Sequence record: NC_070984.1
Origin: Escherichia phage ES17
Direction: 5' to 3' (one strand)
Length of the DNA stretch: 64,000 nucleotides
Shown: one piece after another, positions 19,109 to 48,877 of the stretch
Numbering within the stretch: the stretch's first letter is position 1
Layout: every line of letters starts with the position of its first letter
Notes under the pieces: generated by a model
Told to the model about the DNA's origin: nothing
Database searches by the model: none
The model's input: the letters and a program-made list of their open reading frames with translations, nothing else
Translations under genes and position numbers: made by a program

Positions 19109-19927
19109 TTACCAAGATTTATCTAACCATGTCCAGTCGAACAGGTCTTCCGGAGTCTGACCAACAAAGAGCAGCCGAGCATTCTCAAGCATCTTCTCTT
19201 CATCTTCAGTATCGAACTTCTTATAATATTCCATTCGTACTATATGATACATGGTCCATCTATCTGTAACACCAGCCAACAGACTAGCTGCTGCTTTCTT
19301 CCCTATTCCTTGACGTCGAAGCTGAAGCTTACCACCCCACATAACCTCTTTACGTTCCCCACATCCGGGGATGTTATCCGTACCATCTCCAATCAACATT
19401 TGATAGAAGAAGTTTTGCCATGAAACTAAATCAGATACGTAATGAGGAGGGACTTCTTTCTGTCTTTCTCCACAAGCCCAGCGATAATGCCATCCGGGAG
19501 TTATCAACAAATCCTTGTCTCTAGTACAGATGATAGTATTCTTATCCCTACGTTGCCTTTCAGCTAGTGCATCATCAGCCTCTCTCCCAAAGACCTCAAT
19601 GTATTCGTACTTGGCTTTAATGTAATCACCAACGTTTTGCCAGTGAAAAGGTCTTTCTCCGGGAGGTCTGTTTGCCTTGTAGTCTTGTTGCTTAGCAACA
19701 TCGAAACGGAAGTTACCGCCTTCGCTGAAGTAGAATACAACCTTACTACAACCCGAGCGAGCTATAATTGTATCAATCTTGTACTGAAGTCGTTCAATCA
19801 TGAAATTGTAATCAACTGGAACACGTCCTGTGTCAAGGAAGGGATGCTCCTGAGTAAGAGCACCCACTTCATACCGAAGAACGTCAGCGTCCACTATAGC
19901 AACTTCAGGGAGCTTAACTTCTTCCAT
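19109..19927 (-). CDS. 5'-3' exonuclease / flap endonuclease (T7 gp6 / PolI 5'-nuclease family)
   Basis: GREADDALAE and LIGDGTDNIPG motifs; start placed at ATG 19927 (AGGA RBS) rather than track start 19951. Confidence 0.8.
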   Translation of the reverse strand: MEEVKLPEVAIVDADVLRYEVGALTQEHPFLDTGRVPVDYNFMIERLQYKIDTIIARSGCSKVVFYFSEGGNFRFDVAKQQDYKANRPPGERPFHWQNVGDYIKAKYEYIEVFGREADDALAERQRRDKNTIICTRDKDLLITPGWHYRWACGERQKEVPPHYVSDLVSWQNFFYQMLIGDGTDNIPGCGERKEVMWGGKLQLRRQGIGKKAAASLLAGVTDRWTMYHIVRMEYYKKFDTEDEEKMLENARLLFVGQTPEDLFDWTWLDKSW

Positions 19928-20803
19928 AAATATCATCCTGAGCTTGAGCAATAATCCAATCTAGGTCTGATACTGCTGATTCAATAGTTGAGTCATTAAA
20001 CAGTAGATATGTTTTTCTCTGTTCGCCTTCAATATACGAGCGAGAATCTCTATCAAAAGAACAACCATCTCTAAGAACTTGGACAACTTGGACATTGAAA
20101 TTCTTTTCTAGTTCTCGTACCTCTGCATCAAAGCCTCCGTCAGTGAAAACAATAATGTCGTCCTGACCCAGCCCTTCTTGTTTGATGCTCTCTACAGCAA
20201 GATTCCCCATATGGTTGTTGCCAAACATAGGTTTTAAGAAGTCTTCACTTGTAGAAATCATCAAATCTCTTACAGACTTCCCTCCCCATTCTGGTCTAGG
20301 CTTTTCTTTCCATTCACGATCTTCATAGAGTGCTAGAAAGTTTTCTAGAGGCATACCCAATGCAGCAGCAGCTACATTATACATCGGCTCCTTGAAAGAC
20401 TTGGTTGAATATCCATGATGGTATGAGTGTGCATTTACCCAAGCACTAGCTATCGTATCTTTACCACAACCCGGAGGCCCATTAAGAATTACCACTAAAG
20501 GTTTATATTGGGAGCATTCCACCATATTAGTCAGTGCTGGATTGCCTTGAGATTCCATTTCTAATTGCTCCGTGTGGTCATGTGAGTAGTCTACTGGAGA
20601 AGTTTTGTTACCAGTAACTTTAGGTAAAATCGCTCTAGTTGTTTCTACGTATTTACCGCCATCAATATTGATTTGAAACTCTACAAGCTCATTCTGTAAC
20701 TCATATCCTGATAAGTTGGATAGCTCCTCCAACTCATCTCTGACGAAATTTAAATGTTTGATTTTAATTGCAAGAGCTTTCTTTAAAACTTTTACCTCTT
20801 CAT

Positions 20804-26116: not shown

Positions 26117-27961
26117 TTAGTGCGTATGCATCCAGTTAAGTCCAATCTGACAATCAGAGGCCAGAGGACATTCCATATTCAAATACTCACCAGCCTTCTT
26201 AACACAAAGCTCGGTGTGCTCTTTGAGTTTCTGTACATCGTTACGATTAACTGAGAACTGGCCCTCGTCGTGCATATCAATTACCTTAGCACAACGAACT
26301 CCATCCTTCTCAATCCACTTGTTAAGGAACATCATAGCGTATTTCATAACAACAGCACCAGCACATTGCAGGAGAGTGTTAAGTGCTTTATGAACCATAA
26401 CTTTACCAGTGGCATCTCGTCTCATTGTAATCTTACGACCATCAACACCAATCAAGTATCCTTGAGCAGCTTTCTCTGTCATACGATCAATGAGGATTGC
26501 AATACATGGGTTCTCTGCCAAGAAACGTGCTCGCATCACTGAACCTTCGTCAGCCCCACCACCTACAATTGAGCCAAGCTTAGCGTCGCCAGCACCGTAG
26601 TTGAATGCATAGATAAACGTTTTAGCATTGTCACGAGTAGGAAGACCAGCAAGTTTCTGGTTGTGGGAGTGGATATCACCTTCAAGGAGAATATCACGAT
26701 ACATAATAGCAGAAGCTAAACCACGTTCTGCCAGAGCTTTCTTAGCTGGGTTGTTCTCTTCAATTGCCTCAGCAAGCATATCCCTACACTCTTTAATGAG
26801 GTAGTGAGCGAGCATACGAAGTTCAAGTCCAGAACCATCATACCCTAAGAATACTTCTTTACCAGCGGGTATGTAATATTTGTAAGCACCTATAGGTTTA
26901 TCTTTCTTCCCCGGCTTACCTTTCTCGTAAATTACGTTAGTACCTTTTCGTATATAACAACCATCAGGAACAACGTTAGTAATAACGAAAGGACGAGAGT
27001 GATCACTGTCTGAGTTATAGTCAGACTCAAACAAACTGCGACACTCGTGACCAAACAGACCACGGGAGGGAATATTAACCACGATACGATGTTTGAATCG
27101 AAAAGTCGGCGTAGCGCAGCTGTTAGCTTCTGCCGAAAGTTTACCATCTTCGCGTTCCTTTGCTATGAGTCCACTGATAAGACCTAGCCTGTGAGCCGCT
27201 ACAACGCGTCTCTTAAGCAAACTTCCGACACTCCCTAGCTCACCCCCTAACCCTTCTTCAAGAGTCTCCTCGAGGTTTGTAGGAGCTGTAGGCCACTTGT
27301 TTGATGTGGCTAGTGCTTTCTTAATCTCATCAAACGTTACAGGATTACGGCGATTAGGGTTCAACCCCAAACCAAATACGTAAGCCTTCATGTAATTCTT
27401 AGTCTTAAACCTGAAATGCTTTTCTAAGAACTTCTTAATATCAGCGTCAACCATCTCGGCTGTCTGCTTCTGCTTAGCATTGCCTCGCATCCAAGCAGTA
27501 TACCATGCTTGGTACGTTCCATACTTTCTCATATCTTTCTTGATTTCGAAAGTATTCCAAGGCTTCTTAGATACGTTAAACTCTGGAGGAAGAAAGCCTT
27601 CATCCATAAGAGCTTCTTTAACTCGTGCATCTTTCGATGGGTCAAAGTCTACGTATTCGACACAGGTGAAAGCTCCACCAATATCTTCTCTCTTCAGCCC
27701 AACCCTATCACAATAGGCTTGAGGCCACTTCTGCAAAGCTCCAGACTTCTTAAACGGCTTCATATAAGTAGAGCCATCTAATCTCATCTTAGGTAAGAGA
27801 GGAATCAACTCTCTGTCAATATTAACAATAATCTCTTTAAGGAGGTGAACATACCACCGAGCATTTCTTCGGTTGAAACTCACTCCGTGCTTTGCTTGCT
27901 TAGAGATTATATCAGCGACAGTCATCTCTGTCAAAAATGGAAGAGCGTCCGGGTTGCTCAC
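26117..27961 (-). CDS. DNA polymerase, family A, T7 gp5-like polymerase domain (no exonuclease domain)
   Basis: Motif A FLGYDGSGLELRMLAHYL, motif B PTRDNAKTFIYAFNYGAGDAKLG, motif C VIDMHDEGQF; near-identical spacing to T7 gp5 C-terminal half. Confidence 0.85.
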   Translation of the reverse strand: MSNPDALPFLTEMTVADIISKQAKHGVSFNRRNARWYVHLLKEIIVNIDRELIPLLPKMRLDGSTYMKPFKKSGALQKWPQAYCDRVGLKREDIGGAFTCVEYVDFDPSKDARVKEALMDEGFLPPEFNVSKKPWNTFEIKKDMRKYGTYQAWYTAWMRGNAKQKQTAEMVDADIKKFLEKHFRFKTKNYMKAYVFGLGLNPNRRNPVTFDEIKKALATSNKWPTAPTNLEETLEEGLGGELGSVGSLLKRRVVAAHRLGLISGLIAKEREDGKLSAEANSCATPTFRFKHRIVVNIPSRGLFGHECRSLFESDYNSDSDHSRPFVITNVVPDGCYIRKGTNVIYEKGKPGKKDKPIGAYKYYIPAGKEVFLGYDGSGLELRMLAHYLIKECRDMLAEAIEENNPAKKALAERGLASAIMYRDILLEGDIHSHNQKLAGLPTRDNAKTFIYAFNYGAGDAKLGSIVGGGADEGSVMRARFLAENPCIAILIDRMTEKAAQGYLIGVDGRKITMRRDATGKVMVHKALNTLLQCAGAVVMKYAMMFLNKWIEKDGVRCAKVIDMHDEGQFSVNRNDVQKLKEHTELCVKKAGEYLNMECPLASDCQIGLNWMHTH

Positions 27962-27977
27962 TTTATACTCCTTTAAA

Positions 27978-28391
27978 TTATTGGTAAAGTAAATCTGTAA
28001 ATGCTTGGTTATCTTCTACTACATCCAAGGATGTGGAATCAACAGCATATGTTCTCATTGCTGCATTTGTTTGTGCCCAAGTAGATTGAGAATAAGAAGA
28101 CCTAACTTCACGAGGCTGTTCTCGTACCAGATGAGCCACAACCCTCTGATTAGCAACTTCTTCTCTTTCTCTAATAGCTCTCTGAATGTAGGCCAGCTTC
28201 ATACCCCAAGCTTCTTCAAACTCTTGAGGGTGTTTATCGCTGATAACCACATACTGACGTTCAGGAATACCAGAGCGAATCTCTGATAATAATTCATGGA
28301 ACAAATCTAGTTCATGTTCAGTGAGATTCATTTCGATATCATCCCACTTGAGAACTAAGAAACGGTTTTGGTGTCTAGCTGGTAATGGCAT
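27978..28391 (-). CDS. Hypothetical protein
   Basis: 137 aa track ORF. Confidence 0.35.
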   Translation of the reverse strand: MPLPARHQNRFLVLKWDDIEMNLTEHELDLFHELLSEIRSGIPERQYVVISDKHPQEFEEAWGMKLAYIQRAIREREEVANQRVVAHLVREQPREVRSSYSQSTWAQTNAAMRTYAVDSTSLDVVEDNQAFTDLLYQ

Positions 28392-28554
28392 CCTACTCCA
28401 CCTCTACTTCAATGTAAGTTCTCTCACCGACGTCATCTTTTAAGACCCATGACTTGGCATCTTCTTCAGACTTAAAAGCTTTCACAACGCTGTAACCACC
28501 TTCCCATTCATCACCGAACCAGCGCTGTCCTACGTAAATGTATTCTTTCATTAC

Positions 28555-28839
28555 TCAACCTTTTGGGAGTGGCATCAAAAATTCCATAGCAGATTTAATC
28601 TCATTATTGATTCGTGAATCACGATAAGAGATAAACTTACCTTTGCTATCACGTAACATCACATGGGTTCTGGCTGTTTTGTGAGGGAGCAATGTGATAC
28701 TAGTTGGAATAGCATCAATCCCTACAGCGTATTTGTCAATAGTCTTACTTTCAGCCAACAGATAAGACCAAGTACGCGGTTTCTGCTCCGGGCGGTTAGG
28801 GTATGTGTCCCGAATTTGAACCATAGCTAACTTATTCAT
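28555..28839 (-). CDS. Hypothetical protein, tandem paralog A
   Basis: 94 aa; KTARTHVMLRDSKGKFISYRD...LMPLPKG parallels next gene. Confidence 0.4.
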   Translation of the reverse strand: MNKLAMVQIRDTYPNRPEQKPRTWSYLLAESKTIDKYAVGIDAIPTSITLLPHKTARTHVMLRDSKGKFISYRDSRINNEIKSAMEFLMPLPKG

Positions 28840-28840
28840 A

Positions 28841-29095
28841 TTAAACTCCTTTAGGGAATGGGATGAGATTTTCTACTGCAACACGGAAAGATTTTTCTAC
28901 GTTCTTATTCTTATAAGAGATAAATTTTCCATCAGCTCCTCGAAGGAGTACGTTAGTGCGAGCTGTATTTGGGTTTTGTTGAATCATAGAACGAATGATG
29001 TTCTCTGAACCTCTATGCTTATTGGTGAATTTCCAACTGATAGTTTTACCGGTACGAGTTACATCAATGATATTTACGATTTTTACAATAGACAT
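28841..29095 (-). CDS. Hypothetical protein, tandem paralog B
   Basis: 84 aa; NTARTNVLLRGADGKFISYKN...LIPFPKGV. Confidence 0.4.
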   Translation of the reverse strand: MSIVKIVNIIDVTRTGKTISWKFTNKHRGSENIIRSMIQQNPNTARTNVLLRGADGKFISYKNKNVEKSFRVAVENLIPFPKGV

Positions 29096-29138
29096 ATTTA
29101 TTACCTAAGAAGTTTAATTTGGTTTATATAAAAGAAAA

Positions 29139-29159
29139 GGCCACCTGATTAGGCAGCCT
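29139..29159 (-). terminator. Intrinsic terminator (G-U containing stem)
   Basis: Minus-sense GGCUGCC-UAAUCAG-GGUGGCC + UUUUCUUUU after stop at 29165. Confidence 0.5.
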
Positions 29160-29164
29160 TTGTT

Positions 29165-29458
29165 CTAGAGACGAAGCCAAGTTTGATAGTCAGCTTCAGT
29201 GTAATGGTTGTTTCGAGAGTTGTTTTTCATTTCCTTGAGAGTAGCTCTCAGGTCAATGTTATGCTCTCTCCTTGTTCTATTCGGGTCTGTATCTTCTAAT
29301 AGATGGGAGTGATCACTACAAGAGTAGTGCTTATAGTGGTCCCTGTATCCTCTACTTGGAGAATACTTGGTCATTAAAGTTGCAACTCTTTTTACACCCT
29401 CTGCTTTACAGAATTTACAATAAGTGTGAATTGTACATCTTTTTGTTTCTGCTGACAC
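29165..29458 (-). CDS. Cys/His-rich small protein (zinc-binding)
   Basis: CTIHTYCKFCKA ... HYKHYSCSDHSH. Confidence 0.35.
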   Translation of the reverse strand: MSAETKRCTIHTYCKFCKAEGVKRVATLMTKYSPSRGYRDHYKHYSCSDHSHLLEDTDPNRTRREHNIDLRATLKEMKNNSRNNHYTEADYQTWLRL

Positions 29459-29468
29459 TATAACCTCT

Positions 29469-29783
29469 TTATGAGCTTAAAGCTCCTTTGCGTGCTCCAG
29501 CTGCTTTTCCAGCTCGATCACCACTTTTGCCGCCGTTTGAACGGTTTGAGCTGACTGATTCAACACGTAAGTTGCTTGACGCATTAGAGCCTCCAGACTT
29601 GACAGCTCGTTTGTGTCCAACGTCTTTACCTCTGACAGCAGCTTTTCCATCGCGCTTTTCAACGATGCGACGTGCACGGTGGCGCTGAGCATCTCCGCTC
29701 TTGCTCCCAATTCCCGTTTCACCGCGCTTGATCGCAGTCCTTCTTTCTTGTGCATAGTCTCTTTTTCCTACATGATCTGCCAT
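29469..29783 (-). CDS. Highly basic Arg/Lys/Gly-rich protein
   Basis: Strong RBS CAGGAGAAATCTA-ATG; alternative-frame ORF 29477-29755 lacks RBS. Confidence 0.4.
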   Translation of the reverse strand: MADHVGKRDYAQERRTAIKRGETGIGSKSGDAQRHRARRIVEKRDGKAAVRGKDVGHKRAVKSGGSNASSNLRVESVSSNRSNGGKSGDRAGKAAGARKGALSS

Positions 29784-30112
29784 TAGATTTCTCCTGATTC
29801 TCTTTGATTAAAGGTGTGGATGGCGTGGCAATTAGCACACAATATCCTGCACTTCCTCATCTCTTCTTTTACTTGAGATAAAGATCTGGTGTGCCCTTTG
29901 GAGAGTTCGAATGACTTAGTTAATGGATTTAAATGATCAAACTGAAGAGCAGATGCGTGGCCCTTAAAGCCACACTCAGAGCATCCATAGAATGTTTTAA
30001 CTCTACGGATAAAAGCTAGTTGCCTAACTCTTCTTTTCTCGTTATCTGCCTTTCTCTTATCTCTATTTCCTGGGTCGGCCCATCTACACGAGTCATTGCA
30101 AAACCTCTGCAT
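29783..30112 (-). CDS. HNH endonuclease
   Basis: CSECGFKGH ... FDHLNP ... CANCH motif. Confidence 0.7.
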   Translation of the reverse strand: MQRFCNDSCRWADPGNRDKRKADNEKRRVRQLAFIRRVKTFYGCSECGFKGHASALQFDHLNPLTKSFELSKGHTRSLSQVKEEMRKCRILCANCHAIHTFNQRESGEI

Positions 30113-30200
30113 TATATACTTCGTTACAAATGGTACCTTACAGGTTTCACATTCCTTGTGGTATGTTGCTATTTGGACCCCCTTGTGTGAACTATAAGAA

Positions 30201-30650
30201 TCAACTCTCTTCTAGTATAATCCTGTACATTGCTTCCTGAGCATCTTTCATATCTACATATGGACCAAGCACCTCACTATCTTTTCTGATGAACCAATCA
30301 CCTTCTTTGAATATCAGAGATACGTGAACATCTTTATTATTTGCTTTGACTGCTCGCCCCCATGCTGGGTTATGTCGGGATAAATTATCAATATGACAAT
30401 TATCAGTGCGCCCATCCAGATGGTGTAAATAAGATTGAGGCCACTGGCCTGTCTCTTTATACCATACGGCTTTCTTCAATTCAACAATGCCACATGGTAG
30501 TCCTATGTATAGGATATTAGGCTGTAAGCTAAAATTATACCACTTAGATGTGAAAGGGATTAGAGGTTCCCTTTTGGTGAAAAACATCGGCCCCTCTCGA
30601 ATGTATTCTAGACTATCTATACACTTCAAAATCTTTTCACTATAAAGCAT
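30201..30650 (-). CDS. HNH-family homing endonuclease-like protein
   Basis: HHLDGRTDNCHIDNL fits the HH.DG...N....NL HNH pattern. Confidence 0.5.
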   Translation of the reverse strand: MLYSEKILKCIDSLEYIREGPMFFTKREPLIPFTSKWYNFSLQPNILYIGLPCGIVELKKAVWYKETGQWPQSYLHHLDGRTDNCHIDNLSRHNPAWGRAVKANNKDVHVSLIFKEGDWFIRKDSEVLGPYVDMKDAQEAMYRIILEES

Positions 30651-31390
30651 TAACTGTTTACCTTTTCCATAGCTTTAACAATAGCTTTACAGAAACCAGA
30701 ACGAACAATGTCATCCGATTCGCCGTCTACAATCTCAGCGAACTCATACAGATCATGTTCATCAATAAAGTTAGTAGCCCAAGTAAGACCGCTCTCACGA
30801 CCACGCATATCATGCTGGTTAGTATCACCCATGCAGAACAGCTGAGAGGTTTCTCCCAATCGAGTCATGATTGAGAAGGCTTCATCTTTAGTGGTGTTCT
30901 GGAACTCATCAACAATAACAATAGCATCATTGAAAGAACGACCACGGAGATATTCCAGAGGTACGAACTCGATGTTACTGTTACCGAGCTGGCATTCATA
31001 GAACCCCTTACCATATCGCTGAGTAATAACATCAATGATAGGCATCAGGTAAGGTTCAAACTTCTCACGCATTCCTCCCGGAAGTAACCCAAGAGAGTTG
31101 CCCATGCCGACAGAAGGGCGACTCAGAATGATCTTCTGAATCTTACCGCTCTTCAGTGCATCAATAACTGTGGAAGTGATTACAAAGGTCTTACCACAGC
31201 CCGCAGGAGCGTCTGTGAACACAACTTGTTTAGTCTTAATAGCATTGAGTAGCTCAGACTGAAACTGGTTCTGAGGGACTACAGGCTTTGCTAAAACCAC
31301 CTCTTCATACTCTCGCTTACCTTTACGAGTAACAAGTGCTTCCCGACGAAGGTCTTTCCGTGATTCTTTCCGTGATTGACGACGACTCAT
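30650..31390 (-). CDS. phoH: PhoH-like ATPase
   Basis: Walker A FTDAPAGCGKTFV, Walker B VIVDEFQN. Confidence 0.8.
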   Translation of the reverse strand: MSRRQSRKESRKDLRREALVTRKGKREYEEVVLAKPVVPQNQFQSELLNAIKTKQVVFTDAPAGCGKTFVITSTVIDALKSGKIQKIILSRPSVGMGNSLGLLPGGMREKFEPYLMPIIDVITQRYGKGFYECQLGNSNIEFVPLEYLRGRSFNDAIVIVDEFQNTTKDEAFSIMTRLGETSQLFCMGDTNQHDMRGRESGLTWATNFIDEHDLYEFAEIVDGESDDIVRSGFCKAIVKAMEKVNS

Positions 31391-31572
31391 TTACGCTCTC
31401 CAATTTCTTCGTAATGACACTCAGTAGTTAAGCAGTCTTTACAGATTGCTGTATAAACCCTGACGTTAGTAAATCGTTTGTTCTCCCCTTTGGTTGGAGA
31501 GCCTTTGGCAAGCTCTCTGATAACCTTGTTACTTAAATGAAGGTTTGTTCCTTCACATTTAGAGCACTTCAT
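31387..31572 (-). CDS. Zinc-ribbon mini-protein
   Basis: CSKCEG ... CKDCLTTECH four-Cys arrangement. Confidence 0.4.
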   Translation of the reverse strand: MKCSKCEGTNLHLSNKVIRELAKGSPTKGENKRFTNVRVYTAICKDCLTTECHYEEIGERK

Positions 31573-31888
31573 GGTTCATATCTTTATGAATCCTGTAAAC
31601 AGCTGTCGCCATACAAGCAACAGCCTCGTTGTGTGGGAGGTGCATCCCTGTAGAACCATCCCAATCTTTGAACTCATTGTCAAAGACTCCGGTAGGCTCT
31701 GGATATAGAGCTTGCAGCTCCACTAGATCATTAGCAACTTGTTGCCATTTATCATCAGACCAGATAGGGTCATCCAACCAGTAATACAAATAGGAATGGA
31801 TGATCAATTGCTTTCTATGCCGATTGATTACTTCAGCGGGACTTATCTCACTTCCATTTGAAGTCCTAAATGTATTACTGTCAATCAT
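31559..31888 (-). CDS. Stand-alone protein resembling NAD-dependent DNA ligase domain Ia
   Basis: HSYLYYWLDDPIWSDDKWQQVANDLVELQALYPE vs LigA [34 protein letters not shown] (from memory). Confidence 0.35.
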   Translation of the reverse strand: MIDSNTFRTSNGSEISPAEVINRHRKQLIIHSYLYYWLDDPIWSDDKWQQVANDLVELQALYPEPTGVFDNEFKDWDGSTGMHLPHNEAVACMATAVYRIHKDMNHEVL

Positions 31889-32139
31889 TTCACAACCTTA
31901 AATTTGAATGTTGTTGGGTGATAATAATGCAACCTATTGATAGTGTGCTTTGTTTCGAGATATATCCTGCAAGAGTGGCACATGACATGGGTCAGACCAG
32001 TTACAGGGTTAGGTTTGAAGTTGGCGACAGGCTTCTCTTTCTTACAGAAGCTACAGACTTTCTTTTCCATCTTTTCTCCAGTGGTCAACGAATTGCTGAA
32101 ACACCTTATGGTCGAATGTGAAACCACGAGCAATCCCAC
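31885..32139 (-). CDS. Zinc-finger mini-protein
   Basis: CSFCKKEKP ... CHSCRIY; true start probably internal Met (about 32070). Confidence 0.35.
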   Translation of the reverse strand: MGLLVVSHSTIRCFSNSLTTGEKMEKKVCSFCKKEKPVANFKPNPVTGLTHVMCHSCRIYLETKHTINRLHYYHPTTFKFKVVK

Positions 32140-32300
32140 ACTCTACGAAAGTAGAAGGCATATAGTCTACATCATCTTTAGATGTATGACCATAAACTTG
32201 AATAAGCTTTTTAATCTTATCCTTCTCTCTTCGAGGAAGCATCCTAAATGCCTCCTGAATATCTGTAATATGTTTGATTTTCATCAGAAAGCCTCTGATA

Positions 32301-32957
32301 TTAACTCTCCAAAGTTTTCTTCAGAGCTGCCCATGAGATTGGGTAGAGCTTAGCCATCTCTTCATCTACGGATTTAGCAAACACTCGAACTTCATATTGA
32401 GCGTGAGATGAGAGTCGCTGACGACACAACTCAAACCAGCCATACAAAGAACCAGTCCACACCCACTCAGTGATCATCCCCTGAGGAAGAACAAATCGAG
32501 CTTGCTCTGGTGCAATAAATTCAATCAACTTGTCATATGTTGCTAGAGAAGCTTCATATGCATCGTTAATTAACATTAATGCTTCAGCTCGCTCTCCGTC
32601 GATGAGTTGAATCCCTGAACCTGCATGGAGGTCCGAAGGTCTCGCAAAAATCTCTTTAGGGATGAAGACTTCAACTGCTCCATCTTTATACCGCCGGGAC
32701 ATTTCGTTCCACGAGAATCCAACCTGATGCTTGCCCAACTGTCTCGCAATTGCGATAGGTGCTTTGCATCGGAAACTGACTTGCGGGTGTCGGAATGGAG
32801 TACAGTGTTTTTCCCGTGCAAGGAAGTTGATAAGTTTTGTGTCTCTCTCATTTAAGTCACCTTCTCGAACAACACCGAAAGATACTCTAGCTGCATTGAC
32901 TACAGATTTGTCACTACCCATTGCTTCAATCAGTGTTGCTTGTAGTTGTTCGTTCAA
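32301..32957 (-). CDS. thyX: Flavin-dependent thymidylate synthase ThyX family, with altered RHR motif
   Basis: TPFRH..SFRCKAPIAIARQ ... SWNEMSRRY and EQARFVLPQG...AQYEVRV are ThyX-like; canonical RHR is KHQ here. Confidence 0.75.
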   Translation of the reverse strand: MNEQLQATLIEAMGSDKSVVNAARVSFGVVREGDLNERDTKLINFLAREKHCTPFRHPQVSFRCKAPIAIARQLGKHQVGFSWNEMSRRYKDGAVEVFIPKEIFARPSDLHAGSGIQLIDGERAEALMLINDAYEASLATYDKLIEFIAPEQARFVLPQGMITEWVWTGSLYGWFELCRQRLSSHAQYEVRVFAKSVDEEMAKLYPISWAALKKTLES

Positions 32958-33396
32958 TTAAAAGTTCCTTTTTTCGATTCATGTAAACTTGATGAGCTTC
33001 TTCGGCAGTTCCATACATACCTAGATGTATATCTACTTTATCAATACAAATAACAGCCCTATATCTAATAGTCCCTGATTTATATTTGACAACCTTAACA
33101 CCTTGAAGCCCTGTTTCCTTGTTTGATACCCTAGCCCCGAACTGGTTGTGGCAGTTTGTCGAGGTGTCCACCAATCTCAAGTTCTGTATTGAGTTGTTCT
33201 TCTTATTTCTATCGATATGGTCTATCTGAGAAGAAGGCCACTCTCCATAGTAAAAGAACCATGCCACTTTATGAGCTTTGTGTACTTTCCCTTTAAACCG
33301 CAGGGTTATGTACTTACTTCGAGTTCCTCCTAATTTCTTACCTTTTCGAAAGAACTCTCCAGTCTCAGGGATATACTCTAAATCATCGATTAACAT
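32926..33396 (-). CDS. HNH homing endonuclease with AP2-like DNA-binding domain
   Basis: QIDHIDRNKKNNSIQNL (HNH) plus YRAVICIDKVDIHLGMYGTAEEA (AP2-like). Confidence 0.75.
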   Translation of the reverse strand: MLIDDLEYIPETGEFFRKGKKLGGTRSKYITLRFKGKVHKAHKVAWFFYYGEWPSSQIDHIDRNKKNNSIQNLRLVDTSTNCHNQFGARVSNKETGLQGVKVVKYKSGTIRYRAVICIDKVDIHLGMYGTAEEAHQVYMNRKKELLIERTTTSNTD

Positions 33397-33661
33397 TCAG
33401 AGCTGTATCTAAAAATGCTTTCAGGTTTGCTTCAGTCTGCATACCAGAGAGGCTGTAGTGTGCACCACTGTTACGGTCAGGCACAACGAAAGCAGGGATA
33501 CTTCGTACACCATACTTAACAGCTTGTTCACGACCATCACCTTCAAGGATGTTAATCTCTTCCACTTCTACATCAAACTCCTTAACAACCTTCTCAAAGG
33601 TAGGAGCCATTGCTTTACATGGAGCACACTGATCACTATAAAACTTAATTACTTTAGGCAT
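33383..33661 (-). CDS. Thioredoxin-like protein
   Basis: 92 aa with SDQCAPCK redox motif in thioredoxin-fold position. Confidence 0.7.
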   Translation of the reverse strand: MPKVIKFYSDQCAPCKAMAPTFEKVVKEFDVEVEEINILEGDGREQAVKYGVRSIPAFVVPDRNSGAHYSLSGMQTEANLKAFLDTALNVNR

Positions 33662-33669
33662 GTAAATCC

Positions 33670-33849
33670 TTATGCAGTCAGGAGGTGAAGCAGGAATGGG
33701 ATAACAACAGCTACGATAACCATGATAGTTGATGCTGTTTGAATCTCACCTTTCTTATCAGGAGTTTCTTCAATAAGCTTACCAGAAGCCCAATAAATAC
33801 CACCACCAATAAAGATAGCCCAAATACCCCATACGATTGCTGATAACAT
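33670..33849 (-). CDS. Small two-TM membrane protein (59 aa), not in ORF track
   Basis: MLSAIVWGIWAIFIGGGIYWAS...MVIVAVVIPFLLHLL; RBS AAGGA. Confidence 0.35.
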   Translation of the reverse strand: MLSAIVWGIWAIFIGGGIYWASGKLIEETPDKKGEIQTASTIMVIVAVVIPFLLHLLTA

Positions 33850-33910
33850 ATATCTATATCCTTATAAATAAGTTCGCCCCACCTCGGGTTAGGAGACAGG
33901 GCGGAGGTTT

Positions 33911-34522
33911 TTAGTAAGACACGTCACCACTTGAATGGGACATGTTGCTCTTGACGAAGTAGCAATACTTGCCAAGACCTTCATTAATTTCTTGAAGCAT
34001 ACTCTGATCGACAGGGTAGGTGGCTAAATCACCATCAAACTCATCCATCTTCTCAATAATACACATCAAGGTCATGCACATATCAGAGAGCATACCGTCC
34101 ATGTCTAGATCAGCGTTACCCTCTGAGAACCAAGCATGAGAGAGGTAGTTAGCTGCTGTAGCATCCACTTTAACACAGTGGTAACGCATACGTTCAGCAA
34201 TACGATCTCCTACCTGTCGTGCGTAATCTTCCAGCTCATCAAACATACCATGAACACCCTGAAATCCTGCACCAGAGACGTTCCAGTGGTAGTTTTTAGC
34301 TTTGATATGCAAGAGTTCCATGTTAGCTTGTAAGCAGCTCAGGATGTGTTCTAGGCTGTTTGCACTAATCATGCCTTGCATTGTTTCAAGGCGAGAGATT
34401 GAAAGCTCAGACCGGTCTAACATACTATAACTGTCACGACCAATCTCAGGTAAATCAAAGACATTCTTATGCATTTGGGTTTTCTCCATCAAGTTCAACT
34501 GAATTAGCAACATTACGTGCAA
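33911..34522 (-). CDS. Dps / ferritin-like protein
   Basis: KNYHWNVSGAGFQGVHGMFDELEDYARQVGDRIAERM matches the Dps ferroxidase-site helix pattern. Confidence 0.65.
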   Translation of the reverse strand: MHVMLLIQLNLMEKTQMHKNVFDLPEIGRDSYSMLDRSELSISRLETMQGMISANSLEHILSCLQANMELLHIKAKNYHWNVSGAGFQGVHGMFDELEDYARQVGDRIAERMRYHCVKVDATAANYLSHAWFSEGNADLDMDGMLSDMCMTLMCIIEKMDEFDGDLATYPVDQSMLQEINEGLGKYCYFVKSNMSHSSGDVSY

Positions 34523-34796
34523 TATTATCCATTACCTGCTGGGTAATTACGATGCAGTTCTGTGGATCTACTGACTTAGAACGCCCCATTTCAGGGTCAT
34601 ACACCTTAACTCGCTTAGCAGTTGAACCTGTAACCTGAAGAACCTTCAACAGATATCCCTGATTACCGATAGACCAAGCAACAACATCACGATTCTTGAT
34701 AAAGCGACCAAGCATATCACGATGATAAAACTGTTGCATCACCTTGGATTTTGTAATCTCTTCAGTGGGCGGGGCCACTTTACTCAAATCTAACAT
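34467..34796 (-). CDS. Hypothetical protein
   Basis: 109 aa track ORF; near-match promoter motif AAATGTATA about 45 nt upstream. Confidence 0.35.
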   Translation of the reverse strand: MLDLSKVAPPTEEITKSKVMQQFYHRDMLGRFIKNRDVVAWSIGNQGYLLKVLQVTGSTAKRVKVYDPEMGRSKSVDPQNCIVITQQVMDNIARNVANSVELDGENPNA

Positions 34797-34868
34797 AACT
34801 CTCTCCTGTAAAATACAAATTCTTATTGTACTCTATATACATTTGAGAGTTACCATATCTACTACCAA

Positions 34869-35078
34869 TCAGTAGTAAATTACTTTAGACATAAAAGAAC
34901 CAGTGTTAGGGTCTTCATGCCAGCGATGTATGTCAGCGCTTTTTACTATTGTGCCCAGAGTCTTCAACTGTTTCTTAGCAATACGAGCCTCTTTGCGAGT
35001 GTCAAACAATTTGATGCTATCTTTTCTCATGTGTTGCTCAAGATCCCAAACAACATGAATAGCCCACATCTTTTTCAT
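34869..35078 (-). CDS. Hypothetical protein, tandem paralog
   Basis: 69 aa; shares length and ...ARxxKK...HxxxE...G...VxY pattern with next gene. Confidence 0.35.
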   Translation of the reverse strand: MKKMWAIHVVWDLEQHMRKDSIKLFDTRKEARIAKKQLKTLGTIVKSADIHRWHEDPNTGSFMSKVIYY

Positions 35079-35287
35079 TAGTAATGCACCTTTCCGCTGA
35101 TATAAACACGACCAGAAGAATACTCCTTGGCCTTATGAATACTGATGCTCTTAGTTAAGTCTACATTGAACATAGACTTTTTAAAATCTCGAGCTTGTTG
35201 GCGAGTGGGTAGTGCAGTCATAGTCATGCCACCTGATGCCCACTTAATCTTTGCTAACCAAAATTGTCTCATAGTGATTGGTCTCAT
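35078..35287 (-). CDS. Hypothetical protein, tandem paralog
   Basis: 69 aa; stop/start overlap with previous gene. Confidence 0.35.
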   Translation of the reverse strand: MRPITMRQFWLAKIKWASGGMTMTALPTRQQARDFKKSMFNVDLTKSISIHKAKEYSSGRVYISGKVHY

Positions 35288-35328
35288 TTTACTAAACTCT
35301 TTAAATATTATTACTATGGATTATAACA

Positions 35329-35550
35329 TTAGGTCTCGATAAGGCGACTAGTATCATAACCGACATACGGAGATATTAGATTATTCTCAGGAGCAGTCCC
35401 TCGACAAGCAATAACAATATCATATTTCCCAGAGCCGTGAACTTCGTGGAAGATTTCAACTGCCTTATCTTTTTCAGTGGAGAATTGTATCGGATACACT
35501 TCACCTCTTTTGTAGGGGACTATAACATAAAGATCTACTGTTTTATGCAT
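35329..35550 (-). CDS. Hypothetical protein
   Basis: 73 aa track ORF. Confidence 0.3.
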   Translation of the reverse strand: MHKTVDLYVIVPYKRGEVYPIQFSTEKDKAVEIFHEVHGSGKYDIVIACRGTAPENNLISPYVGYDTSRLIET

Positions 35551-35754
35551 ACCTCACTGCTCCATTTCACTATCGTTTGACCAAACTAGGCTGTGATGTT
35601 TGAATTCACCTTTCAGCTCCTTAGTATGATTACTGTCAAGTTGGGTTTGTTTAACAATCAACCCCACATCAAATTCTGATACAGACTTCTCTCCTTCTTC
35701 TAAGTTGTTGTTATAAACACTTCACAGAAGCTCGGTCATTTTTTCATTAGTCAT

Positions 35755-36264
35755 CTATCTTTCATCCACATTAAAGGATAGGTGAAGCCTACTTCTCATA
35801 GACTTCGCTAGGAGTTTTGCCTCTTCAAGAGTTTTCACTCCATATACAGACTCACGTTTACCATCTTTTTGAATAGATACACAGAATGTCCCGCCCTTCT
35901 CTTGGTAGACATTCTTAACTCCTAGTTTGTTATCAACCCTTGTCTTAGCATTCTGACTGTTCTCAGAGTGATAGCACTTTCTCAGGTTAGTTTCTTCTAG
36001 GTTTTCTCTGTTACCATCGGCATGATCTATTTGATATTCATCCGATAAATCCTCACCAGTATAAAGAACAAAAAGAATCCTATGATTGTGGACATGAACT
36101 CCTCCTAAGGGAATTTGATAATATCCATCTTTTGTGAGCTTGCCAGCAGGTTTACCTACTATATCATTAGCAAACTTACTAGGCTTCCTTTTCCAAGAAA
36201 GCCCTGAAGGTGATGACATGTCTATGTTAAAGAGATCAACTACTTCATCATAGCATATCAGCAT
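35755..36264 (-). CDS. HNH homing endonuclease with AP2-like domain
   Basis: YQIDHADGNRENLEETNL HNH motif; start placed at internal Met to avoid 128-nt overlap with dcd. Confidence 0.7.
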   Translation of the reverse strand: MLICYDEVVDLFNIDMSSPSGLSWKRKPSKFANDIVGKPAGKLTKDGYYQIPLGGVHVHNHRILFVLYTGEDLSDEYQIDHADGNRENLEETNLRKCYHSENSQNAKTRVDNKLGVKNVYQEKGGTFCVSIQKDGKRESVYGVKTLEEAKLLAKSMRSRLHLSFNVDER

Positions 36265-36802
36265 GATTTGTTCCACCAAAAGCTTTTGTTGGCCCTTGTT
36301 GGTTATTATATGAACCTTTCGTTGCGTAGCTGTCCTCTTCGGATGAAGAGTGTTTAAAGAATTCCATTTGACCAATACGCATTCCCGGTTTGATCAGCAG
36401 AGAGTGATGCTGTAGAACATTCTTGAATTCCATAGTTAACTGGCTACCATGCCAACCGCCGTCAGCATGACCAGCGTGCATGTGCTCTAAGAAACAACGA
36501 CCAACAGTGGACCGTAGCATGAAATCGCAGCTAATATTATCTGGCAGATTGAATGTCTCCATTGTATGAGCCAAGAAACACTCACCCGGTTTGATCACTA
36601 ACCCTTCCTCTGGAATCATAACCTCATTGAAGTTAGGAGATTCTTTAGCAGAGATATCAACAACCCCGTTAGCTGCACCTTCCATTAGAACGCGATCTCC
36701 AATACGAACATCAATGCTGGAGGAATTAACAGCTGAGTGTGGTGCATCAATAACACCATCATCAATTAATTTATGTAACTCTGGACTTCCTAGTAAACTC
36801 AT
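36248..36802 (-). CDS. dcd: dCTP deaminase (dUTPase superfamily)
   Basis: 184 aa; SSIDVRIGD ... GHADGGWHGSQLTMEF ... GMRIGQMEF matches Dcd pattern. Confidence 0.7.
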   Translation of the reverse strand: MSLLGSPELHKLIDDGVIDAPHSAVNSSSIDVRIGDRVLMEGAANGVVDISAKESPNFNEVMIPEEGLVIKPGECFLAHTMETFNLPDNISCDFMLRSTVGRCFLEHMHAGHADGGWHGSQLTMEFKNVLQHHSLLIKPGMRIGQMEFFKHSSSEEDSYATKGSYNNQQGPTKAFGGTNHADML

Positions 36803-36811
36803 TCTTATTCC

Positions 36812-38182
36812 TTAGTTATTTGTTTCCATGTCAAAAGAGATTCCACGACCCGCTTCATCGGCAAACCGAACTGTACGGGTTTGAGGTTCTAATACTTCAG
36901 GGTTGTTAGCAATAAAGCGATCAGCGAGACTATCTCCCAAATCTTGTTCCATACCTTCATCAGTCCAGATAACACGAGAAGGGGCGTTGATATCACCAAC
37001 AGCGAAACCCTGACCAGAGAACTGACGTGCGCTAACAGTTAAGCCGTTTGGTCGACCACGAGAGGGTCTAGCCATCCATCGCTCCATAGAATCACTTGTA
37101 ATACCAAGAGCTTCTTCAAAAGATGTTCTACGAGTAGGGCTTTCTCTTCGTGACTCTTGTGCTCGACGCATTGCAGGGGCTACAAACACCCCTTCAATTG
37201 CATTGTGTCGGTTAGGTTCCTCTTCTCGACCAAGCAGATCACCACCCGTGTTAGTCGTTAAATTTGTCAACCCCTCAGACCAATACGCATGAATCTGACC
37301 AGAACCGTGAAGACTAGACATAATCTGAATCTCTTCATAAGGGATTCCAAAGAATCGACTCATGTCTCGGTTAACACAATATAGAGCACTTGTTGTATCT
37401 TCAATAAGAGAAACCTGACCTAATCCATTGACTAGATGACTAACTGGCTGAGGTGTGGGAAGATATCGAGTTTGGGCCATGTATTGATGCGCAACTGCTG
37501 GAGAGGAAAATCTCAACACTTGTGAGTTAGGCCACTTCTTGTGAACATACCTGATTTCACGACTAGAGACAACCACTGGACAAGGGGAAGTCATAGCCAA
37601 ATATCCGTGAGAAGTCATGAATAAGTTGTCAAGAGTCATCGCACCACGGCACATCATAGGAAAATTATCCAATACCTCTTCAATAGAAGTAGGATAATTA
37701 AACATGAATTGGATACGAACCCCATTCCACTGAAACTCAATAATATCAGTGAATGTTAATTGAGAACCCCCAGCATAGGATTCGTTTGTAGCTTCAGCAA
37801 GAAGTGATGCATATTCAATATCTTGTGACTCTAGCCATTCCTTCACATTACTTTCAATCTCCCGTCCAAGCTCTTGCCAACGATCAGTTGGGATGAAAGT
37901 GTTTTGAGTTCTTGGTGTTTGTCCTCTGACAATAAAGATATCAATGTCATGTGGAGCTATGTTATTAAGGACAGCATCACGAACAGCCCCACCAGTAATG
38001 ATGGGACAGATACCATCTGGAATCAAGTTGTTGTTAATCAACTGTTCAATGAAGTGACGACCAACAGTGATATCAGGTTGTTGAGCAACCTTATCTTCAA
38101 TTTGGTTAATCGGGATAACAATCATTTTACATTTTCCAATATAATGAAGGTGGGTCGTAAGGGTCAAATCCCGTGAGTTCAC
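36812..38182 (-). CDS. Class II nucleotidyltransferase (CCA-adding / poly(A) polymerase head-domain family)
   Basis: [23 protein letters not shown] = GGxVRD ... DxD motif; start likely internal near 38125. Confidence 0.55.
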
Positions 38183-38684
38183 ACAAGAAAAGATAAACCT
38201 TAACAGTTAAGTTAACGTCCTGTTCACAATAAGTAAACATATCTTCAGTGAAAGCATCCCATGCTTCCTCTTGCTCACCATAATCGCCCTTAAGTTCTCC
38301 TAAGAACTCACCCCACTGCTTCAAACCATGACCCCTTGGGCCACGTCTAGGGTCGCCTTTCGGATACTCAGGACTGTCACCAATACGGTCAGGTTTAAGA
38401 TATCGACTAAGACATAAAGTGTCGAAGACGTTAAAACGATAGTTAATCAGATTGGGATACATCTTCTTCAGAGCACAAAGGTCGAAGTCAATAATATTGT
38501 GACCCACCAGTACATCTGCTTCTGTAAGTTTACGAATCCCATCTTCAATTTGGTGAGGCCGATAGCCCCACCTTTCACCAGTTTCAACATCGAAGATATA
38601 AATACACCATACTTTAGTTATGTCATCGTACAGTGCATTACTCTCGATATCGAATGCAAACACTTTCTTCTTTTTCTTTACCAC
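38127..38684 (-). CDS. 3'-5' exonuclease domain protein, T7 gp5 N-terminal homolog
   Basis: [37 protein letters not shown] parallel T7 DNAP exo motifs SDIEANAL / HNGHKYD / DTLVLSRL / YNVQDVVVT. Confidence 0.8.
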
Positions 38685-40468
38685 GGTGAAGCTCCATCTG
38701 CTTGGTTGACGAGAGAAGCTGCATCCTCTCCGTTAGTTAAAACGAATGGATTATCTTCATCAACTTCAAAGTCTTCCCTTTCTACAAGTCTCCCGGTTTC
38801 ACTGATATACTTAGTATAGCAGACACCTGTCTGACCGTAGTTACGTTCTTTCAGTAATCGAATGACTGAGAGGTTCTTAGCTAAGCCATCAGCTTGCTTG
38901 TCACGCTCAAAGCCAATGATACACTGACACCAACGCATAAGAGAACGAGAGCCAGTGAACTGCACTTCACGTACCTGTCCACCTTCTTCATGAGGAGCAC
39001 CACCTGCCGGAGCATTAAGGTGAGATAGCACGAAAGCGGTAAAGTCTAATTCTTTGCACATACCAGCAAGCTCGGAAGCAATCTTACTGATTTCAGTGTT
39101 AATCTCTGAAGGTGTTAAATGGGACACCAGAGCGGTAATGTTATCAAGGATGATGAACTTACACTGGTTTTCAACTACCCAGAAACGGATACACTGTTTA
39201 ATGTCTTCCCATTCATTCTGTCCGAAGTTGTCATACAAGAAGAATTTGTCTGCATAACGAAGTGCTTCATTACGCAAATCCTCCTCATCATATTCAACAT
39301 CAGGTCGGTGGAAAGGAATTGATGCCGACTTACCAGCAATGTTCTTAACAGACATGCCTACCTTCTCTTCCAAGAAGAAGCCACCTCCATTAAAACCATG
39401 TTCTAAGCACAGATGAGCAACCAGCTCATGAGCAATGAGTGTTTTACCACTCCCTACTCCACCACCAATTGCTACCACCTCTCCCCATCGAATACCGAAG
39501 GTCATCTCATTCAGAGTCTTCCACGGATATGGGATACCCCACTCCGCTTTCTTCAGAGCATCATCAAGGCAATCAAAGATTGTTACAGCACCAGCAGGAG
39601 ATTCCCGCTTTGCTGAGTACTTGAGAATGTTGAATAACTCTTGACCACGACCAGACAGAAGCATGTCATTCGCATCCTTAATCTCTTTCTCCACACCGTT
39701 GTATGGGAAAGTTCCTTTAGGAATACGAGCAAACTTAACATGAGGGAATAAAGAACGACCTTTTGTTAAAGCTATCTCACCTGCATCATCGTTGTCCATG
39801 CAGAGCACAACCTCCTCAAAACCATTTACGAAGTCTCGATTACGAGACAACACAGAAGAGATTGAACCTGCACCGAACGGTAAAGAAACACATGCTGGTT
39901 TGATGTTTGTTGCATTTGTAAAAGCTGTAAGGACATGGAAACCTGACATACAGGATAGCGGGTCTTCAAAAATGAACAGCTTCTTGTTGTACACATCTCC
40001 ACGTTGAGCTTGTGCCATACCAAACAAATCTGCTTCTTTCACACTGCCGACGTAATAGAACTTCTTACTATCTAGCAGCTTAACCTCATAACCAACGATG
40101 TTTCCATCACGTTCACGAGGAAAGAAGTAGCTGTCTGGTGTCTGACCATCAGTTTGACTGAGACCAATACGACACTCAAACCGCTCTGATACAGCTTTAG
40201 GGATTAAACGGCGAGTGAGTTCACCCTGAGGAAGCTCTAAGCAATCATCTAAGACTTCTCTCAACTCTTCAGGGGATAACTCTTTCTTCTCGTTTGGAGT
40301 AGGTGTAGTGCCCTTTTCGAACACTTCGTAATTCCCACAACGGTTACAACTTCCCCACTCCTCACCAGTCTCTTCGTTACGGAAGAGAATCATGTGGTTG
40401 TGGGTTTTATCACGACCATGAGAGATACATTCCTTACAACCTGTGTCTCCCAAAATGATCTTTGACAT
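38678..40468 (-). CDS. Primase-helicase (T7 gp4-like)
   Basis: N-terminal zinc ribbon CKECISHG...CNRCG, TOPRIM region, helicase Walker [10 protein letters not shown]. Confidence 0.85.
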
Positions 40469-41613: not shown

Positions 41614-42816
41614 TTAGTAGTTTACAACAGTGCCATCATTCAGGGTAAGGTTATTAATCTGCAACACACGACCAAGCTGACGATCACTAATTGGTGCGTT
41701 CCATCCAGAGCGGTAGAAGTTACGACCACAGAAGAACAAGATCACATTACTTGCTACAGTTGAACCATTTTCAGGATGCTTGATGTTAGCGATATAATAA
41801 CCACGACGCAGATTACGACGGGTTACAGGGTTGATCTCTAACCCTTGCTCTTCAACCTGCATTATTTCAGGGACAGGCTCCGAAGACTCTTCAACAACTG
41901 GCTCGGAGCTTTCCGCTGATAGTGCGTAATCCTCATCACCTGCTGGTGAAAATGTTTCTTCCACTTCTTCCACGGGAAGTTCGTATGCAACACGGTAGTC
42001 AGGCTCAACACCAGAGAAGCTCTTAACAAACTCAACGATGTTGTGAGTGTAGGTTTCCAGAGTTGTGCCAGTCAGGCCCGGAGCTGTATTAACTTCCAGA
42101 ACCCAAGCGTTAGTACCTTTGCTAATCAGGTCAACAGCACCGAAGTTCAAACCCAGAGCAGATACAGCTTTGTGAGCTTGAATCAGAACTTGATCAGGAG
42201 GCGCTTCAGTGAAGGAGTTAGAATAAACCCAACCAGTATGATGGTTACGAATATCTTCACGATAGCTTTCCAGTTCACGATAACCATTACGACGAATCTT
42301 CTTCTGAACGTAAGTGATAACACCTTCGAACACATGAACACGCCATTCACGACGTGGGCCTTGGATGCCTTTGGTGTACAGAGGAGCATCCGCAACACCT
42401 TCTCGCGGAAGACGAACAGTGATCCCCTCACCAGAGTGACCAGTCAAGGTTGCACGTTCATAAACAATTTCATTCCGGTTCCAGTTCTGAGCTACTTCAC
42501 GATCTACGGTGTATTCAACAGTTTTGACTTCAGCTAAACGCAGTGCGTTAAATGCTGCAACTTTGTTAGCGGCTCGGTTCAAGGCAACCACAGAGTTCAA
42601 TACAGTTGCACCGCCAAAGAAAGAATCATTATATCGACGGTTTCCGTAGTTGACAACAATATCACCAACTCGAGAACGATAACGAGAACCCTCTGATACC
42701 AGAGACATTACGTTAGCATTTAGTCGAAGTTCCTGAATCTTAGTGTTAATTGCAGAAGTAAGTTCACGAACTGAATCAGAAGGGCCATAAGGAAGAACAC
42801 GGATACGAGTAGTCAT
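41614..42816 (-). CDS. ATP-grasp enzyme
   Basis: C-terminal AVDLISKGTNAWVLEVNTAPGLTG matches ATP-grasp E-x-N Mg/ATP-binding motif. Confidence 0.6.
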   Translation of the reverse strand: MTTRIRVLPYGPSDSVRELTSAINTKIQELRLNANVMSLVSEGSRYRSRVGDIVVNYGNRRYNDSFFGGATVLNSVVALNRAANKVAAFNALRLAEVKTVEYTVDREVAQNWNRNEIVYERATLTGHSGEGITVRLPREGVADAPLYTKGIQGPRREWRVHVFEGVITYVQKKIRRNGYRELESYREDIRNHHTGWVYSNSFTEAPPDQVLIQAHKAVSALGLNFGAVDLISKGTNAWVLEVNTAPGLTGTTLETYTHNIVEFVKSFSGVEPDYRVAYELPVEEVEETFSPAGDEDYALSAESSEPVVEESSEPVPEIMQVEEQGLEINPVTRRNLRRGYYIANIKHPENGSTVASNVILFFCGRNFYRSGWNAPISDRQLGRVLQINNLTLNDGTVVNY

Positions 42817-42818
42817 TG

Positions 42819-43043
42819 TTAGATACCTTTAAGTTTAAGAATTTCGTTACGAGTTTTTTGAATCTGAGCTTCAATTTCGAAGTAGTCATTGAACGCATCG
42901 TTCTCTACTTCATCGGATGGTGCATCAATCAGACCGAAAGCGAACGGATACAGCTTTCGCTGCTCCGTTACCAATTCGATATGAACTCCTATGTAATACT
43001 GTAGGAGAGTAATCTTCGGTTTCTTAGGAACCAGATTTGACAT
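42819..43043 (-). CDS. Hypothetical protein
   Basis: 74 aa track ORF inside operon. Confidence 0.3.
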   Translation of the reverse strand: MSNLVPKKPKITLLQYYIGVHIELVTEQRKLYPFAFGLIDAPSDEVENDAFNDYFEIEAQIQKTRNEILKLKGI

Positions 43044-43257
43044 GAGGTTCTACCTTAATGCCTTTGATTTTTACATAATCAGCAAGCACGTTGTTGATCA
43101 CCGTTGGGAAAGGAACCTCAACCTGTGTTTCAAGTACTTGACCAATACCAGCTTGCATCCACTTCTGGATTGCACGAAGGTTATCACATCCTGTGCTCGT
43201 CATCGGGATACGTCGAGTAGTTACAACGTTATCCAGCATCATCTTACGAATTTCCAT
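43024..43257 (-). CDS. Hypothetical protein
   Basis: 77 aa track ORF inside operon. Confidence 0.3.
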   Translation of the reverse strand: MEIRKMMLDNVVTTRRIPMTSTGCDNLRAIQKWMQAGIGQVLETQVEVPFPTVINNVLADYVKIKGIKVEPHVKSGS

Positions 43258-43259
43258 AC

Positions 43260-45290: not shown

Positions 45291-45293
45291 TTT

Positions 45294-45323
45294 CTAATCC
45301 ACCTGAAGGGTAAACCCTTTCAT
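45294..45323 (-). other. 9-codon upstream mini-ORF (MKGFTLQVD) ending 3 nt before GAT-II ATT codon
   Basis: ATG 45323 with AAAGG RBS; in-frame TAG at 45294-45296, then AAA, then ATT-TGT. Confidence 0.35.
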
Positions 45324-45369
45324 CTAATTAACCTTTAAATTGTGCCCCTTTATCAGAGGCACCCATTGA

Positions 45370-47087: not shown

Positions 47088-47096
47088 GATAACCTC

Positions 47097-48867: not shown

Positions 48868-48877
48868 AACTAACCTT

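Follow-up and report, generated by a model that had tools for sequence, protein, structure and literature searches.

The window analysed here is a 64,000-nucleotide stretch of Escherichia phage ES17 (NC_070984.1), in which a T7-type DNA polymerase is encoded by two separate genes. The region under study comprises positions 26117 to 38684 (about 12.6 kb), and every gene in it is located on the minus strand. The two polymerase genes, in the following called exo and pol, lie at its ends:

38127 to 38684, minus strand: exo, predicted stand-alone 3'-5' proofreading exonuclease subunit of the DEDDy type, 185 amino acids (aa), corresponding to T7 gp5 residues ~1-196
26117 to 27961, minus strand: pol, family A DNA polymerase subunit lacking an exonuclease domain, 614 aa, equivalent to T7 gp5 residues ~210-704

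In a nucleotide search the region matches about 98 phage records at 93-99% identity; to Kuravirus phages the identity of the window amounts to about 95%. Nearly all of them are Escherichia phages of the genus Kuravirus, e.g. FH3, PGN6866 and SU10 (NC_027395), and the source phage is a Kuravirus, i.e. a phiEco32/SU10-like E. coli podophage.

The exo protein matches the Pfam family DNA_pol_A_exo1 (PF01612) with 34.1 bits at a cut-off of 23.6. Its closest relative among the solved structures is T7 gp5 (residues 3-178, E 5.5e-12), and BLASTP aligns residues 12-181 to gp5 residues 5-196 with 33% identity (E 3e-18). Two PHROG families, phrog_403 and phrog_38876, which are both annotated as 'DNA polymerase exonuclease subunit', are matched with 2e-79 and 8e-38, respectively. 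The AlphaFold (AF2) model of the protein has a pLDDT of 94, and its best 27 structural matches in the PDB are all T7 gp5 chains. Free-standing DEDD nucleases are found among the structural matches at E ~4e-5, T7 gp5 being five orders of magnitude better. A generic or unrelated nuclease of the DnaQ family, which had been named as a possible objection by an earlier reading of the window from its sequence only (the sequence-only reading), can be ruled out by these 27 matches. The motifs of DEDDy nucleases are defined as Exo I (DxE), Exo II (Nx2-3D) and Exo III (Yx3D). All three are present in the exo protein, as FDIES (D12, E14), HNIIDFD (N63, D68) and YCEQD (Y152, D156), and the motif residues line up with T7 D5/E7, D65 and Y170/D174. 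Throughout 45 stand-alone homologues, down to 31% identity, no exchange is seen at D12, E14, H62, N63, D68 and D156, and Y152 is almost invariant.

The pol protein is assigned to DNA_pol_A (PF00476; 82.6 bits, 3.6e-23), and here too the closest relative in the PDB is T7 gp5 (E 4e-33). According to BLASTP, residues 192-614 align to gp5 residues 318-704 (E 6e-39) and residues 72-134 to gp5 residues 293-362; in the search for PDB relatives residues 63-135 line up with the thioredoxin-binding/thumb region of T7 (295-363). With the AF2 model (pLDDT 91.9) the best 27 Foldseek matches in the PDB are T7 gp5, with E-values down to 8e-27 and a TM of 0.57, while Bst, Taq and Klenow trail at ~1e-15. The catalytic residues D375 of motif A (within GYDGSGLELR), R443/K447/Y451 of motif B (within RDNAKTFIYAFNYGAG) and H564-D565-E566 of motif C are invariant in 62 homologues and align with D475, R518/K522/Y526 and HDE of T7. 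No exonuclease domain is detected by Pfam on the pol polypeptide, whose N-terminus aligns to T7 only from residue ~210.

T7 gene 5 was translated and aligned with the exo and pol proteins joined end to end. The joined proteins are collinear with the entire gp5, pol running from about T7 residue 210 to the C-terminus, and the break therefore falls between the exonuclease and polymerase domains, into their linker at T7 residues ~197-210. The matches of one single profile, phrog_17 ('DNA polymerase'), which spans both proteins with exo at positions 667-826 and pol at 836-1233, support this collinearity independently. The similarities of both proteins to T7 gp5 are far beyond chance. A tblastn search with T7 gp5 over the window revealed only the exo and pol loci and no second family A polymerase. 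The complete genomes of close Kuravirus relatives have one exo place and one pol place per record, and no further family A polymerase. Another polymerase elsewhere can be ruled out as well, the other large open reading frames (ORFs) of the window encoding tail/virion proteins or enzymes of the amidoligase, glutamine amidotransferase and RimK-like types. It is shown that both halves are specifically gp5-like and collinear, that all catalytic residues are kept and that each half is conserved across dozens of diverged homologues. Conserved as well are the C-terminal strand 'GFDxxNPP' of exo and the N-terminus of pol.

Directly upstream of exo a further T7-like replication gene could be identified:

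38678 to 40468, minus strand: gp4-like primase-helicase, 596 aa, overlapping exo (Pfam DnaB_C, weak Toprim)

Its closest relative in the PDB is T7 gp4 (E 2.4e-32). The GTG start of exo overlaps the stop codon of the primase-helicase (GTGGTAA) and is located 7 nucleotides (nt) inside the end of the 596-aa ORF. A GGAG is found 7 nt upstream of the exo start and an AAGGAG 7 nt before the GTG start of pol, both of which are plausible ribosome-binding sites. From this arrangement exo is probably translationally coupled to the primase-helicase. The C-terminal tail of the primase-helicase (38678-38730, minus strand) is acidic with tryptophan as last residue (…ASPW). In T7, the acidic tail of gp4, which ends in phenylalanine, binds gp5. 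The sequence-only reading had described 38127-38684 as coding for nothing but a gp5-like 3'-5' exonuclease domain directly downstream of a gp4-like primase-helicase, and 26117-27961 as a separate gp5-like polymerase domain. These assignments are borne out, the mapping of the breakpoint by alignment to T7 gp5, which it had proposed, was carried out with the result given above, and a full-length polymerase with its own exonuclease domain, which would have spoken against it, is not encoded in the window.

The window shows the two-gene PolA arrangement, with exo right after the primase-helicase and an exonuclease-less pol farther along the same strand, and this arrangement is also present in other phages. 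The RefSeq annotation of SU10 lists gp075 as 'DNA polymerase exonuclease subunit' and gp051 as 'DNA polymerase', 8.6 kb apart and without an HNH gene between them. SU10 and phiEco32 (Kuravirus, Gordonclarkvirinae) are like the window in both genes, with ~97% nucleotide identity, lengths of 185 and 614 aa and the same position behind the primase-helicase; the Privateer record refers to the phiEco32 proteins by their Swiss-Prot names, DPOL_BPE32 and EXO74_BPE32. The difference between SU10 and the window is confined to the accessory genes of the interval: the window contains four HNH genes, SU10 gp050 and gp062-063 are missing from it, and its gap amounts to 10.2 kb in comparison to 8.6 kb. In Proteus phage Privateer (Grimontviridae) the primase-helicase is followed by the exonuclease subunit, dCTP deaminase, thioredoxin and then the polymerase, with a gap of 5.6 kb in which HNH genes are likewise missing. 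Pseudomonas phage FJK (Bruynoghevirus, LUZ24 group) has a gamma-glutamyl cyclotransferase, a primase-helicase, an exonuclease of 169 aa, eight small genes and a polymerase of 545 aa; one HNH gene lies within its 2.3-kb exo-pol gap. The gene order gamma-glutamyl cyclotransferase, primase-helicase, exo, variable genes and pol is common to SU10, Privateer and FJK.

In the LUZ24/PaP3/tf group (Bruynoghevirus) the two genes are known as 'DNA polymerase part I / part II', and exo is located directly after the primase-helicase with the exonuclease-less pol downstream. The Bruynoghevirus polymerase is 39% identical to the pol of the window over 99% of its length, but it is shorter (545 aa), and only small genes are found in the 2.3-kb gap. 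The LUZ24-group arrangement is explicitly tied to phiEco32 in PMC3517423, where an intron in the LUZ24 polymerase gene is also described. The distance between exo and pol increases from 2.3 kb in Bruynoghevirus and 5.6 kb in Privateer to 8.6-10.2 kb in Kuravirus. This growth consists mostly of nucleotide-metabolism genes and small unknown genes, and the interval behaves as a zone of gene accretion.

As the split is common to Kuravirus, Privateer-like and LUZ24-like phages it is old. In a large protein collection all 59 close homologues of exo are 101-247 aa long, and the closest pol homologues, about 110 in number, have no exonuclease domain. The first fused protein follows with 43% identity, in an alignment that covers two thirds of pol. 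When representatives at 50% identity are used, the best four exo matches are stand-alone proteins. The clade in which a rough neighbour-joining tree of exo places the protein of the window comprises 47 proteins, all of them stand-alone, up to the point where the first fused one joins. The nearest fused relatives in isolated phages are of the Autographiviridae type, e.g. from Vibrio phage VP3, with an exonuclease domain that is 41% identical. Judged from these comparisons, the split is an old and fixed character of a large phage clade.

T7 gp5 is the closest solved structure for both halves and shares with them the domain order and all exonuclease and polymerase motifs, and in T7 the polymerase gene also lies downstream of the gp4-like primase-helicase. 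The T7 enzyme is however one chain of 704 aa, while in the window two chains are encoded, cut at T7 residues ~197-210. Insertions at about 136-268, 335-369 and 391-420 distinguish the pol of the window from T7, and part of the T7 thioredoxin-binding loop (about 268-290) is missing from it. Furthermore the thioredoxin of the window is phage-encoded, whereas T7 gp5 uses the thioredoxin of the host. A separate ORF for the exonuclease domain is also reported for clade B of the T7-like cyanophages (PMC12695635), whose exonuclease regions are 33-38% identical to the exo of the window. In contrast to the window these phages belong to a different family (Autographiviridae); the split is analogous.

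Between exo and pol lie 10,165 nt with about 25 genes on the same strand. They encode a dCTP deaminase, ThyX, thioredoxin, PhoH, a Dps/ferritin-like protein, a nucleotidyltransferase, small ORFs and the following four HNH ORFs:

35755 to 36375, minus strand: free-standing HNH endonuclease, HNH_3 (Pfam 32.9 bits, above cut-off)
32926 to 33396, minus strand: free-standing HNH endonuclease, HNH_3, between thyX and trx (Pfam 50.5 bits, above cut-off)
29783 to 30112 and 30201 to 30650, minus strand: two adjoining small HNH-like genes, a 0.88-kb insertion (Pfam 21.1 and 23.5 bits, just below the cut-offs)

In comparison to SU10, which is 97% identical, three segments are specific for the window: 29784-30662 with two HNH ORFs, 32956-33397 with one HNH ORF, and 35297-36534 with one HNH ORF and a diverged dcd end. 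According to megablast the first insert is present as a whole in PGN6866 only, its first 400 nt occurring in 6 further records; the second occurs in 4 phage records, the third in 9, versus about 98 Kuravirus records. The 3' end of exo and the 5' end of pol are both free of adjoining HNH genes. This distribution marks the HNH genes as recent and sporadic free-standing endonuclease genes of a variable region, which do not belong to the polymerase. Within the stand-alone exo clade identity has fallen to ~35%, which makes the clade far older than the HNH insertions. At 36248-36931, where the dCTP deaminase gene and the nucleotidyltransferase gene end are located, identity to SU10 (11830-12227 of the SU10 stretch compared) is only 76%, with flanks at 97%. 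This 76%-identity stretch adjoins the HNH gene at 35755-36375, which would fit a co-conversion or replacement of the flanks along with the endonuclease gene.

Further genes of the interval and the window were assigned as follows:

33383 to 33661, minus strand: phage-encoded thioredoxin, candidate processivity factor (Pfam Thioredoxin 1.9e-13)
36812 to 38125, minus strand: nucleotidyltransferase, 437 aa from the ATG at 38125 (phrog_12715, 2.4e-245)
19109 to 19951, minus strand: putative 5'-3' exonuclease of the flap-endonuclease type, in a gene of its own (Pfam 5_3_exonuc_N 5.9e-7, below cut-off)

The ATG of the nucleotidyltransferase is located 1 nt past the exo stop, and the phrog_12715 alignment starts at residue 20 of the listed ORF. 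The protein shows a weak match to the PolyA_pol head domain, of the class II CCA-adding/poly(A) polymerase type, and its long C-terminal half looks low in complexity. Kuravirus phages have the gene, whereas in Privateer it is missing from the place between exo and dcd. A protein of 109 aa (31559-31888, minus strand) consists solely of the N-terminal domain Ia of NAD+-dependent DNA ligases (PF22745, 3.9e-35); in relatives it goes under the name 'DNA ligase', although it has neither the adenylation nor the OB domain. A 5'-3' exonuclease is the third activity of Pol I-like enzymes. Such a separate 5'-3' exonuclease is also listed for this phage group in PMC9965538. Far outside the interval, at 41614-50077 (minus strand), a cluster contains genes of the RimK-like ATP-grasp, glutamine amidotransferase, amidoligase and 'phiEco32-like COOH-NH2 ligase' types. 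This cluster is a known signature of phiEco32-like phages.

Rfam detects neither a group I nor any other catalytic intron in the window. Its sole match is a single tRNA-Arg (anticodon TCT) at 54492-54568 (minus strand). Several metagenomic Kuravirus contigs do contain a group I intron (RF00028, 102 bits) within motif B of pol, between KTFIYAFN and GAGDAKLG, at a site which corresponds to codon ~454 of the window pol, near position 26600; in one of these contigs it is located at 5354-5617. These intron-bearing relatives are called as two ORFs of 454 and 139 aa, and about 15 database 'polymerases' of 437-460 aa, including that of Aeromonas phage BUCT695, resemble such intron-cut ORFs. A group I intron is removed by splicing and leaves the protein in one piece. 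Intein halves were likewise not found at the break between exo and pol, where the termini of both proteins align to gp5 without extra sequence.

Taking these results together we regard it as likely, with a probability of roughly 0.8, that the window encodes a T7-type polymerase of two polypeptides which is cut at the domain linker, that the split is old, and that the HNH genes were inserted later and sporadically without being its cause. The 185-aa exo would be translated right behind the primase-helicase and the 614-aa pol from a gene 10 kb farther along the same strand, and both would bind to each other non-covalently to form a gp5-like holoenzyme, with the small subunit doing the proofreading. 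By analogy to T7, the phage thioredoxin (33383-33661) may serve as processivity factor, the acidic tail of the primase-helicase may tether the polymerase as the gp4 tail does, and the translational coupling of exo to the helicase may set their relative amounts. For the phage thioredoxin a processivity-factor role was also proposed in the Privateer paper. The HNH genes would then be homing-endonuclease-type insertions into a region that accretes genes. Some points weigh against this explanation. Among 150 exo representatives at 50% identity, stand-alone and fused proteins are intermixed beyond the best four (35 with at most 260 aa, 82 with more than 500 aa), so that more than one independent split may have taken place in phages overall. 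The tree of exo is crude, as it gives no support values and close homologues are over-represented in it, and the literature search gave genome reports only, without a biochemical study of the two-gene enzyme.

The cause of the split and the role of exo could also be understood differently. The sequence-only reading had noted an interval of about 10 kb with four HNH endonuclease genes and nucleotide-metabolism genes, which is correct for all four ORFs if the two just below the Pfam cut-offs are counted, and had suggested that mobile elements drove the fission of an ancestral single gene. The HNH genes residing in the interval, or their insertion, would be candidates for that, an HNH gene is also present in the exo-pol gap of FJK, and mobile elements do target the polymerase, as is seen from the group I intron in motif B of some relatives. 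The comparison with related phages, which was likewise proposed, confirmed the split but contradicts this cause: SU10 and Privateer share the split with no HNH gene between the halves, all four HNH genes of the window reside in insertions which are absent from SU10 and occur in 1-9 phage records, none of them is placed at the broken ends, and the stand-alone exo clade by far predates them. Since the split is common to phages without these genes, they are not regarded as its cause, and fission by the resident HNH genes is very improbable. Even less probability, practically none, is left for the idea that the halves are rejoined after transcription or translation, by a split intein or by trans-splicing, or that the split is an assembly or frameshift artefact. 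The group I introns in the polymerase genes of relatives would speak for it. However, the alignments of both proteins to gp5 reach as far as the break and leave no room for intein halves, which makes a split intein impossible; Rfam finds only the tRNA in the window; about 25 genes on the same strand separate the halves; and the same two ORFs of identical length recur in dozens of independently sequenced phages.

It could further be assumed that exo is an independent nuclease, which originated from a polymerase exonuclease domain and serves in recombination, host DNA degradation or counter-defence instead of working with pol. The coupling of its gene to the primase-helicase and not to pol would suit such a role, as would the free-standing DEDD nucleases among its structural matches (E ~4e-5). 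On the other hand, pol lacks an editing domain and the genome encodes no gp5-like exonuclease besides exo, exonuclease-less polymerases and stand-alone exonucleases co-occur in conserved synteny in three phage groups, the match to the T7 gp5 fold exceeds that to any free-standing nuclease by five orders of magnitude, and the break lies exactly at the domain linker. An independent nuclease is therefore quite unlikely.

The two-gene polymerase is already known. The separation of exo and pol as a feature common to phiEco32-like and LUZ24-like phages was published in 2012 and 2023 (PMC3517423, PMC9965538), a passage in PMC3517423 cites a description of the two-gene polymerase in phiEco32 from 2008, and the two genes are annotated accordingly in RefSeq and PHROG. 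The observation is a correct rediscovery of a documented feature and carries little weight as a discovery. A small evolutionary point is that the exo-pol interval grew from 2.3 to 10 kb across related groups, gaining nucleotide-metabolism and homing-endonuclease genes. The remaining interest is biochemical, namely how a family A polymerase would proofread with a non-covalent exonuclease subunit. By analogy to epsilon of E. coli Pol III, exo may act as a dissociable, regulated proofreading subunit whose translation goes along with that of the primase-helicase and not of pol, so that fidelity or 3'-end processing would be tuned by stoichiometry, or exo might be delivered to the fork via the helicase. 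This proposal is speculative and fairly improbable. If it were true, the clade would lend itself as a natural model of how family A polymerases are proofread in trans.

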